Below are positions 37,862 to 39,521 of a stretch of DNA of 64,000 bases, one piece after another (the stretch's first letter is position 1; each line of letters starts with the position of its first letter). The DNA is from Candidatus Thorarchaeota archaeon (lineage in GTDB: Archaea; Asgardarchaeota; Thorarchaeia; Thorarchaeales; Thorarchaeaceae): NCBI GenBank assembly GCA_016933575.1, contig JAFGAR010000028.1:231672-295671 (forward strand), given 5' to 3'. A program made the position numbers and the translations under genes. Under the pieces are notes generated by a model. It ran no database searches, was not told the DNA's origin, and was given only the letters and a program-made list of their open reading frames with translations.

Positions 37862-37977
37862 TTTGCTATATTCCTCCTTTCATGCGAATCCCTTGATTCA
37901 CTTGGGTAACAGTCTCAAATCTACCTGAAAAGGTTTGTGAATAACTTCATTTGAATTGAGTGTTTGTAATTACTAAA

Positions 37978-38766
37978 ATGGAAGAGTTTGCAGAACGACT
38001 AAAGGACTATTTTGCTCAAGACGATATTCCATCAATAAAATCATTGATTGAAAAAACCATTAATGAGTATGAATGGAAAAATCTAGTAAATGTCCTTAGG
38101 AATGTTACAAAATCTCTGTATGGACAGCATCTTCTAAAAACGAATTATATGATTCTATCGATTTTTGGCTTTCGAGAGCTGATAGGAGTAGACTGCGATA
38201 TATTCTCAGAACTTGCATCAATTCAACATCCAATTAGTCTTGACTATGTATCGGATGTATTTTTTGATAATCTAATTCAAGTCATAAGGACTCAATTCAA
38301 GTCAGGCGGTTCAACACTATTCTTCGATATTGATAAAATCAGTAAAACAAAATCGGCCATCATAGCTAATGATCTTCTTGAAGCAAGATACAGAGAGACC
38401 ATCTTCATTCTTGCAGAGTTTGATGAGAAACTCCCATCATTGACAAATGAGTGGGTCAATGTAGCTCGCCTGTGGCGTATAGGTTATGGACTTCGAATTC
38501 TAAAAGCACGCAATCATGGAATGATGATTCATGTTAATGAATACAAGGAGATTAGAAATCGTATAATGAATGAGCTTGGAATCAATCCGGAAAGACTCAT
38601 CGAAGAACGCGACCGATTGAAGATGGAGGATAATTTACAGTATCTTCAGCTGTCGGACACTCTCGATAATTTTGTCTTGAGCTACATCATGTCTTTGGGA
38701 GTTAGAGGAAGATTCGAACCTCATTACAAATCACTGATAAATCATGAAGGTCTCGATGAATTCTAA
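37978..38766 (+). CDS. Hypothetical helical protein
   Basis: About 262-aa open frame, divergent from the ABC operon; no recognised motif. Confidence 0.65.
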   Translation: MEEFAERLKDYFAQDDIPSIKSLIEKTINEYEWKNLVNVLRNVTKSLYGQHLLKTNYMILSIFGFRELIGVDCDIFSELASIQHPISLDYVSDVFFDNLIQVIRTQFKSGGSTLFFDIDKISKTKSAIIANDLLEARYRETIFILAEFDEKLPSLTNEWVNVARLWRIGYGLRILKARNHGMMIHVNEYKEIRNRIMNELGINPERLIEERDRLKMEDNLQYLQLSDTLDNFVLSYIMSLGVRGRFEPHYKSLINHEGLDEF

Positions 38767-38940
38767 GAATTCTGCTATCATTCTTGCTGATTTTAAAGAA
38801 AAGGTAATGACATATCGTTTAGTATAAGGACTATGGATTGCACTGAAATATCAAAGTTACACAGAACATTCTTCAATCTCAAGAGAGAGTTTATAGGTCT
38901 TCTAAAGTCACAGGTACGAAATTCAAAGGTTGGATTCGAG

Positions 38941-39129
38941 ATGTCAAGAATAGGAGCCAAGGATGTATTAACTGGAAAAATTCCAGAAGTCAATTATCTT
39001 ATCGTACACGACAAAGGTCTAGCAGATGACTTTGGCGTAGCAATCAATATTCTAACAAGTCAGGGATGGAGTATTGAGCATATCTGGGCTGCGGGATCAT
39101 TCCATTTTGGGTTGTTCAAACGAAAATGA
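38941..39129 (+). CDS. Small hypothetical protein
   Basis: MSRIGAKD ... INILTSQGWSIEHI ... FKRK, a pattern typical of small alpha/beta domains. ATG 38941 lies within the ORF 38833-39129. Confidence 0.55.
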   Translation: MSRIGAKDVLTGKIPEVNYLIVHDKGLADDFGVAINILTSQGWSIEHIWAAGSFHFGLFKRK

Positions 39130-39146: not shown

Positions 39147-39521
39147 GTGATAAAAGTGATAGATAGAAAACAGTTAGAGACCCGTGTCAAGATACTCAAA
39201 GAAACTAGAAAGATTCTGTACAAGCTATCAAAGCAATCAAGTCCCAGAGGATTGTCAACACCTGAGAAAGCAGAATTGAAGAGATATGATTCATGGCTGG
39301 GCATAGCCTGTAAGGAACTTGATAACTTAACAAGACATGGCGAGAAACTGCTTAAACTAAAAGATAGTTCTGGTGCTTCAGAGATGCAACAATCATTCAA
39401 TCTACAATATCTCCAGCTTCAGCAAAATATGCAGCAACAAAATCTTCAATTCACCGTGGTTTCAAATATAATGAAAGTCAAACATGATACTGCAAGGTCA
39501 GCAATCAACAATATCAGATAA
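39147..39521 (+). CDS. Small helical protein with a T3SS needle/EspA-like C-terminal signature
   Basis: C-terminus SFNLQYLQLQQNMQQQNLQFTVVSNIMKVKHDTARSAINNIR. Confidence 0.7.
   Translation: MIKVIDRKQLETRVKILKETRKILYKLSKQSSPRGLSTPEKAELKRYDSWLGIACKELDNLTRHGEKLLKLKDSSGASEMQQSFNLQYLQLQQNMQQQNLQFTVVSNIMKVKHDTARSAINNIR

Follow-up and report, generated by a model that had tools for sequence, protein, structure and literature searches.

The needle of type III secretion systems (T3SS) consists of SctF subunits (YscF, PscF, PrgI, MxiH; PF09392), proteins of about 80 residues (~70-90 aa) that form a helix-turn-helix hairpin with a P-x-x-P turn. In these subunits the C-terminal helix is the polymerization element, and it is masked before export by chaperones. 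In the SctE/SctG-SctF complexes (YscE-YscF-YscG, PscE-F-G), the helices of the chaperones grip the C-terminal helix of the needle subunit and keep it monomeric. To our knowledge, needle subunits are thought to exist only within type III secretion machines. Abby and Rocha described myxobacterial T3SS without SctF (PMC3459982), and the Myxococcus system was still termed needleless in 2025 (PMC12075869).

We analyzed a window of 64,000 nucleotides from a Candidatus Thorarchaeota genome that encodes a small protein with a needle-like tail. Like the SctF needles, this protein has a C-terminal heptad helix with an ending similar to S-N-x-x-K-x-x-x-D-x-x-x-x-I-x-N-x-R. The gene, its parts, and the two ORFs upstream of it are as follows.

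39147..39521, + strand: coding sequence of the protein with the needle-like tail, 124 aa if GTG 39147 is the start and 121 aa if GTG 39156 is; TAA stop codon at 39519-39521
39165..39356, + strand: helical hairpin of the N-terminal domain, with two predicted helices at residues 4-25 and 35-67 (121-aa numbering)
39375..39518, + strand: ultraconserved C-terminal module, residues 74-121
38833-39129, + strand: 98-aa ORF that ends 18 nt before the gene
37960-38766, + strand: 268-aa ORF containing the exact 7-mer NLQYLQL

The Thorarchaeota gene and its surroundings

The product of the 124-codon ORF ends exactly in the tail quoted by the first-pass annotation of this DNA. Since a TAG directly precedes GTG 39147, an N-terminal extension or signal peptide is ruled out, in agreement with the earlier remark that no signal peptide is seen. 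The second GTG (39156) is the start in most orthologs and gives 121 aa. Full-length relatives (119-134 aa, 54-99% identity) form 42 database clusters, several of them named Candidatus Thorarchaeota, and metagenomes are rich in them; the gene is also present at five named Thorarchaeota/Promethearchaeota genome loci. Many Thorarchaeota contigs carry it, with 54-88% identity. A chance ORF can be dismissed because of these 42 clusters and five loci.

The genome (3.47 Mb in 215 contigs, 85.5% complete) contains one copy of the gene, located on a 295-kb contig. The flanking genes match, at 41-79% identity, those of a second genome of the same genus that also bears the gene. The possibility that the contig is chimeric, raised by the first-pass annotation, is not borne out given the 295 kb of sequence and the flanks common to this other gene-bearing genome. 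From the orthologs and the flanks shared with another species of the genus, it follows that the contig is not chimeric and that the gene is under selection. Rfam gave no match anywhere in the window.

The neighborhood of the gene offers little guidance as to its role. There are no conserved neighbors at the Thorarchaeota copies or at 46 non-T3SS bacterial copies, and so neither a pathway hint nor a choice among rival explanations. The Thorarchaeota loci have in common only a divergent gene for a CxxCxxCC protein (PF03692), which lies directly upstream of the module gene at L008:5064-5762 (-), L010:955-1653 (-), and L012:9225-9881 (-). In the window, none turned up at less than 6 kb from the gene. 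The 98-aa ORF has no counterpart beside other Thorarchaeota copies. In language-model features (0.90), the 62-aa core of this ORF looks like small phage (Uroviricota) or DUF4177-like proteins, which is a lead only. The NLQYLQL 7-mer in the 268-aa ORF was considered as a sign of kinship with the module and rejected as probably due to chance, since hhalign against the module profile gave only 16%. Elsewhere among the Thorarchaeota loci, 5-9 kb separate homologs of this ORF from the module gene.

Needle subunits belong to genomes with a T3SS and have T3SS genes as neighbors, whereas the Thorarchaeota protein has neither. Around the gene in the window there is no T3SS cluster (chaperones, SctI, SctJ), a feature that is present in ~25 bacterial relatives. 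The export proteins PF00771 (FHIPEP, SctV/FlhA) and PF00813 (FliP, SctR) were not found in the 85.5% complete genome, so the earlier observation that T3SS genes are absent extends beyond the window. Because this genome is without a T3SS, the protein cannot be a needle in it.

A C-terminal module in a large bacterial family

The C-terminal module is ~48 residues long, and in the Thorarchaeota protein and its relatives it is always found at the extreme C-terminus. Its consensus is SFNLQYLQLQ..MQ.ENRQFT.VSNIMK.KHDTAK.AINN[IV]R, in which the hydrophobic residues, read from the sequence, keep an unbroken 3-4 (a/d heptad) spacing over 42 residues. The N-terminal hairpin has its own conserved pattern, R..L....L..L....P..L...E..E...Y..WL. 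When the Thorarchaeota protein is compared with distant bacterial members, the module is the most similar part (62% identity), followed by the N-terminal domain (28%) and the linker (4%).

An exhaustive HMMER search found 1,147 clusters at E<=1e-3 in a library clustered at the 50% identity level, and these matches always reach the C-terminal residue; in the 90% database there were 119 matches, again always C-terminal. This substantiates the near-identical tail that the first-pass annotation had ascribed to uncharacterized bacterial proteins. The module is 60-85% identical in more than 1,000 protein clusters, almost all bacterial, a conservation across phyla far above that of canonical SctF needles, and module-only matches have E values down to 1e-15 at 70-87% identity. 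Carriers include Myxococcota, Bdellovibrio-type MAGs, Acidobacteriota, Aminicenantes, Gemmatimonadota, Chitinophagaceae, Chlorobiaceae, Burkholderiales, Planctomycetota, Armatimonadota, and others. Single-sequence and profile searches gave no significant match in Pfam, NCBIfam, or PDB sequences, and neither Pfam nor NCBIfam has a model for the module. The Thorarchaeota protein is a member of a large unnamed, mostly bacterial family defined by this ultraconserved C-terminal module.

The module is found in five architectures. One has the helical N-terminal domain of the Thorarchaeota protein, which in bacteria usually follows a Sec or lipoprotein signal. In two others the module directly follows a leader, either a short double-glycine leader of the type 'MARIKI.DLP...VFGG' or a Nif11 leader with a 'VAGG' end. 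A fourth begins with a ~75-aa 'TDFGS...PFIPGGAV' region and a Gly/Ser linker. The fifth is an RHS-repeat protein of 1,836 aa, encoded on a Planctomycetota chromosome; its cargo past the RHS core motif consists of nothing but the module. This fusion emerged from the genome loci; a targeted search for longer proteins gave two long fusions only. Examples of three settings are listed here.

L040:4634-10144: RHS fusion with DUF6531 and RHS repeats, 48-aa module as cargo
L178:60-837, L180:1556-2325, and L179:2886-3598: tandem arrays with double-glycine leaders, in which two peptides carry the module
L050:9620-17043: T3SS locus with a module protein in the sctF slot (similar: L033, L044, L070)

No obvious immunity gene lies downstream of the Planctomycetota RHS-module gene. 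Double-glycine forms are encoded in tandem, 2-3 to an array, along with a second and different hairpin peptide that is more SctF-like; this third peptide of the arrays ends in '...MKKISTT.D.LVQNIK'. Double-glycine and Nif11 precursors are of the class II bacteriocin-like or RiPP type, exported by peptidase-ABC transporters, and no exporter gene was found on the short contigs that carry the module in these forms. Unlike these relatives, the window protein has no GG-ending leader before its module; it begins with the helical N-terminal domain, with a stop codon upstream. A further archaeal candidate (L144:2173-3171) has 332 aa, begins with a signal peptide or anchor, and carries the module at its end with 75% identity; its contig, of only 4.4 kb, is tentatively binned as Nitrososphaerota. 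In the literature we found no paper on the archaeal form of the module or on its export by multiple routes, and both are new additions.

Among 80 genome loci, ~25 place the module gene in a fixed T3SS gene order (Myxococcota, 'Bdellovibrionales', Anaeromyxobacter). The order is three small ORFs, the module gene, a TPR gene, an ORF, a sigma factor, an SctI-like gene, SctJ, a FliG-like gene, an ORF, and SctN, and the SctI-like protein of these Myxococcota-type loci has a weak PF17001 match. This arrangement is collinear with yscE-F-G(TPR)-H-I-J-K-L of pCD1, which puts the module gene in the sctF slot. Another homolog, P0099, is immediately followed by a 107-aa gene and then by SctJ, SctQ, SctR, SctS, SctT, SctU, and SctV. 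The Myxococcota/Bdellovibrio-type proteins in these clusters are ~180 aa long, with the 'TDFGS...PFIPGGAV' N-terminus and the Gly/Ser linker, and have the same ~48-aa module as the Thorarchaeota protein at 55-75% identity. The N-terminal domain of the Thorarchaeota protein is a different, helical one, common to the Sec-exported bacterial forms. The module proteins at T3SS loci are candidates for the 'missing' axial protein of the 'needleless' systems. Among 10 bacterial genomes with module proteins of the non-T3SS type, 5 have no FHIPEP, the isolate Geothrix campi being one of them, and the other 5 have a single FHIPEP copy far from the module gene.

Relationship of the module to needle subunits

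The first-pass annotation had likened the tail to the C-terminal helix of T3SS needle subunits. The window protein falls outside PF09392, since it had no match to this model even at E<=10 and thus does not reach the gathering threshold of 29.4 bits. Among 48 module pieces, 3 matched PF09392 at E<=0.05, and sub-threshold Pfam matches went to HrpA_pilin (8/48), HrpF (7/48), T3SS_needle_F (3/48), and Flg_bbr_C (2/48). HrpA pilin, HrpF, EspA, and flagellar axial C-termini (PF09589, PF06266, PF03433, PF06429) are recurrent family matches, all below curated cut-offs. By language-model features, T3SS needle families come nearest among the named ESM-Atlas clusters (0.90, 176-178 of 256 features), with EspA and HrpF next.

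We compared three alignments with hhalign in order to examine this relationship at the profile level. A3 holds the 48 module pieces, A5 the tails of 240-470-aa proteins from the same Myxococcota/Bdellovibrio-type genomes, which match PF09392 at 22-27 bits, and A7 a diverse set of 21 bona fide SctF, of which 15 exceed the Pfam cut-off. For A7, class-level sampling of 300 genomes gave only one near-threshold needle gene, and an order-level sample succeeded. A3 matched A5 with 97.6% probability (E 3e-12) and A5 matched A7 with 95.8% (E 7e-9). The direct comparison of A3 with A7 was weak (33%, E 4.5e-4) and had an end-to-end register, C-terminus on C-terminus; with A3 and A5 merged, the match to A7 rose to 92.5% (E 5e-7, 51 columns). 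The real scores of 22.6, 36.6, and 45.6 compare with 8-17 for reversed A7, and 60 column shuffles of A7 scored 9-10 +/- 2 with a maximum of 16. A diverse SctF alignment is needed for this result, as the module reached only 1% probability against a narrow Ysc-only alignment.

The proposed kinship to the needle helix therefore stands on the profile comparisons with their controls, the language-model neighbors, and the relatives in the sctF slot, and fails at the Pfam needle model. Our conclusion is a divergent kinship between the module and the SctF assembly (C-terminal) helix, remote but reproducible. The T3SS-bearing Myxococcota/Bdellovibrio-type genomes also encode 240-470-aa proteins with needle-like tails (L088:1489-2817 (-), L089:244-1656, L092:838-1689). 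These match PF09392 at 13-27 bits, one adds a weak EspA match, and they could be parts of a tip, filament, or translocator.

The predicted structure departs from the simple needle-type helical hairpin that the first-pass annotation had envisaged. Instead of the ~80-aa SctF hairpin, AlphaFold2 with a 76-sequence alignment predicts for this protein of 121-124 aa a compact four-helix bundle (pLDDT 90.7, pTM 0.81; helices 4-25, 35-67, 74-97, and 100-118), in which the module bends at the conserved N-R position and packs with the N-terminal hairpin. The model of a T3SS-locus relative is poor overall (pLDDT 55), with the module as one continuous 58-residue helix (pLDDT 74-84) that resembles the long C-terminal helix of SctF. 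The bent and continuous predicted forms would fit two conformations of the module. Foldseek against the PDB, VIA-align wide, and Atlas shape searches returned generic helical bundles only and no specific structural match; the highest Z, 10.9, is within the noise expected of helical bundles. A homo-tetramer prediction of the Thorarchaeota protein gave a median of 0.38, with the mark at 0.42, and counts neither for nor against assembly.

Origin and possible role of the archaeal protein

Only 6 of 201 sampled Asgard genomes have a match to the gene, and in its own genus it is present in 1 of 13 other species, at 62% identity. In the tree, the Thorarchaeota sequences form one clade with 97/98 support among unresolved bacterial sequences. 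This patchy distribution and the single clade point to horizontal acquisition, and the first-pass annotation, which had proposed such an origin, agrees well with a family that is overwhelmingly bacterial. The GC content of the gene (~0.40) equals that of its flanks, so composition shows no sign of recent transfer. An old acquisition from bacteria followed by patchy retention fits these data. Another Asgard genome encodes a 116-aa intermediate form. In a genome of the same archaeal family, a 177-aa protein (L202:491-1024 (-)) combines a zinc ribbon at the N-terminus with an A5-type needle-like tail; its tail is close to that of a Bdellovibrio-type MAG protein (L092), and its gene adjoins a Sec61-beta-like gene.

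The same near-invariant helix recurs in every setting, and this suggests that its conserved partner is the module itself. The simplest partner common to T3SS loci, exported T3SS-free proteins, RHS cargo, and leaderless archaeal proteins is the helix. Since the needle helix polymerizes and is masked by chaperones, and since the helix is common to all settings, we favor, tentatively and at somewhat less than even confidence, a leaderless soluble four-helix-bundle protein, horizontally acquired, with a self-capped homotypic assembly module that is independent of T3SS. The N-terminal hairpin would fold back on the needle-type helix and bend it at the conserved N-R position, and this closed state would be a built-in version of the SctE/SctG chaperones that hold SctF monomeric. 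The likeness to the SctE/SctG complexes is a functional analogy only: their cap is provided by separate chaperones, whereas the proposed archaeal cap would be part of the same polypeptide. Once uncapped, the helix would straighten and enter a homotypic coiled-coil assembly, an oligomer or a filament, independent of type III secretion. Capping by the N-terminal domain, the switch between open and closed states, and self-assembly are the inferred parts of this reading. Several points count against this explanation. The R of the N-R motif, found in more than 90% of members, is L in the window protein, the predicted fold is a generic four-helix bundle, heptad helices can converge, and we know of no role for a leaderless cytoplasmic polymer here.

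If the resemblance to SctF had arisen by such convergence, the shared features being heptad spacing and a polar C-terminus, the protein would be an ordinary four-helix-bundle protein with an unrelated role, for example in binding or as an adaptor. The lack of any Pfam, NCBIfam, or PDB sequence match, the direct hhalign probability of only 33%, and the generic bundles of the fold searches with their noise-range Z would be expected in that case. We nevertheless regard convergence as quite unlikely, because each of the two transitive links is above 95%, the merged profile attains 92.5%, the reversed and shuffled controls are clean, the sctF-slot synteny at ~25 loci is independent of sequence similarity, and the language-model neighbors are needle families. 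A bolder form of the assembly reading is a switchable Asgard polymer independent of secretion, whose closed bundle would open to a needle-type hairpin and build a filament or tube in or on the cell, the helix being a widespread T3SS-independent assembly unit and also the missing myxobacterial axial protein; taken as a whole, this seems distinctly improbable.

The variety of export routes allows for other roles. The module could be a small exported effector or bacteriocin-like payload that follows polymorphic-toxin logic, one C-terminal cargo being sent out by several routes; the N-terminal hairpin would then serve as a pro-domain or intramolecular immunity, and the Thorarchaeota copy would have been captured and self-neutralized. 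The module as complete RHS cargo, the tandem double-glycine precursors, the Nif11-leader forms, and the Sec or lipoprotein signals on many forms all suit a payload, but no conserved immunity-like neighbor is found at the 46 non-T3SS loci or beside the RHS gene, the near-identity of the module across phyla and domains is not what arms-race toxins show, the peptide is rich in Q and N, has a low net charge, and lacks a membrane-spanning stretch, and the Thorarchaeota protein has no export signal, so that we hold this to be unlikely. Organisms without a T3SS might alternatively use the module as a decoy defense, copying the assembly helix of T3SS-like contact-killing machines of Myxococcota/Bdellovibrio-type predators and thereby capping or poisoning their assembly. 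Coiled-coil mimic peptides have been reported as inhibitors of T3SS filaments, the C-terminal helix is the element through which needles polymerize, module proteins at T3SS loci and elsewhere have nearly one consensus, and phyla without T3SS export the module through Sec or double-glycine routes. Such mimicry is very improbable in our estimation, as the idea is entirely inferential, a leaderless Thorarchaeota protein would not meet an external needle, and the myxobacterial systems are themselves described as needleless.

The self-capped assembly module remains our preferred reading of the archaeal protein. The analysis suggests that the needle assembly helix is the core of a very large unannotated family that is used without T3SS, through Sec, double-glycine/Nif11, and RHS routes, and that has crossed into Asgard archaea. 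Should the helix self-assemble, it would be a new, minimal, and portable polymerization unit. For the axial protein of the myxobacterial systems, its relatives at T3SS loci offer concrete candidates, and the archaeal copy shows how a part of a bacterial secretion machine can stay under selection in a host without the machine.
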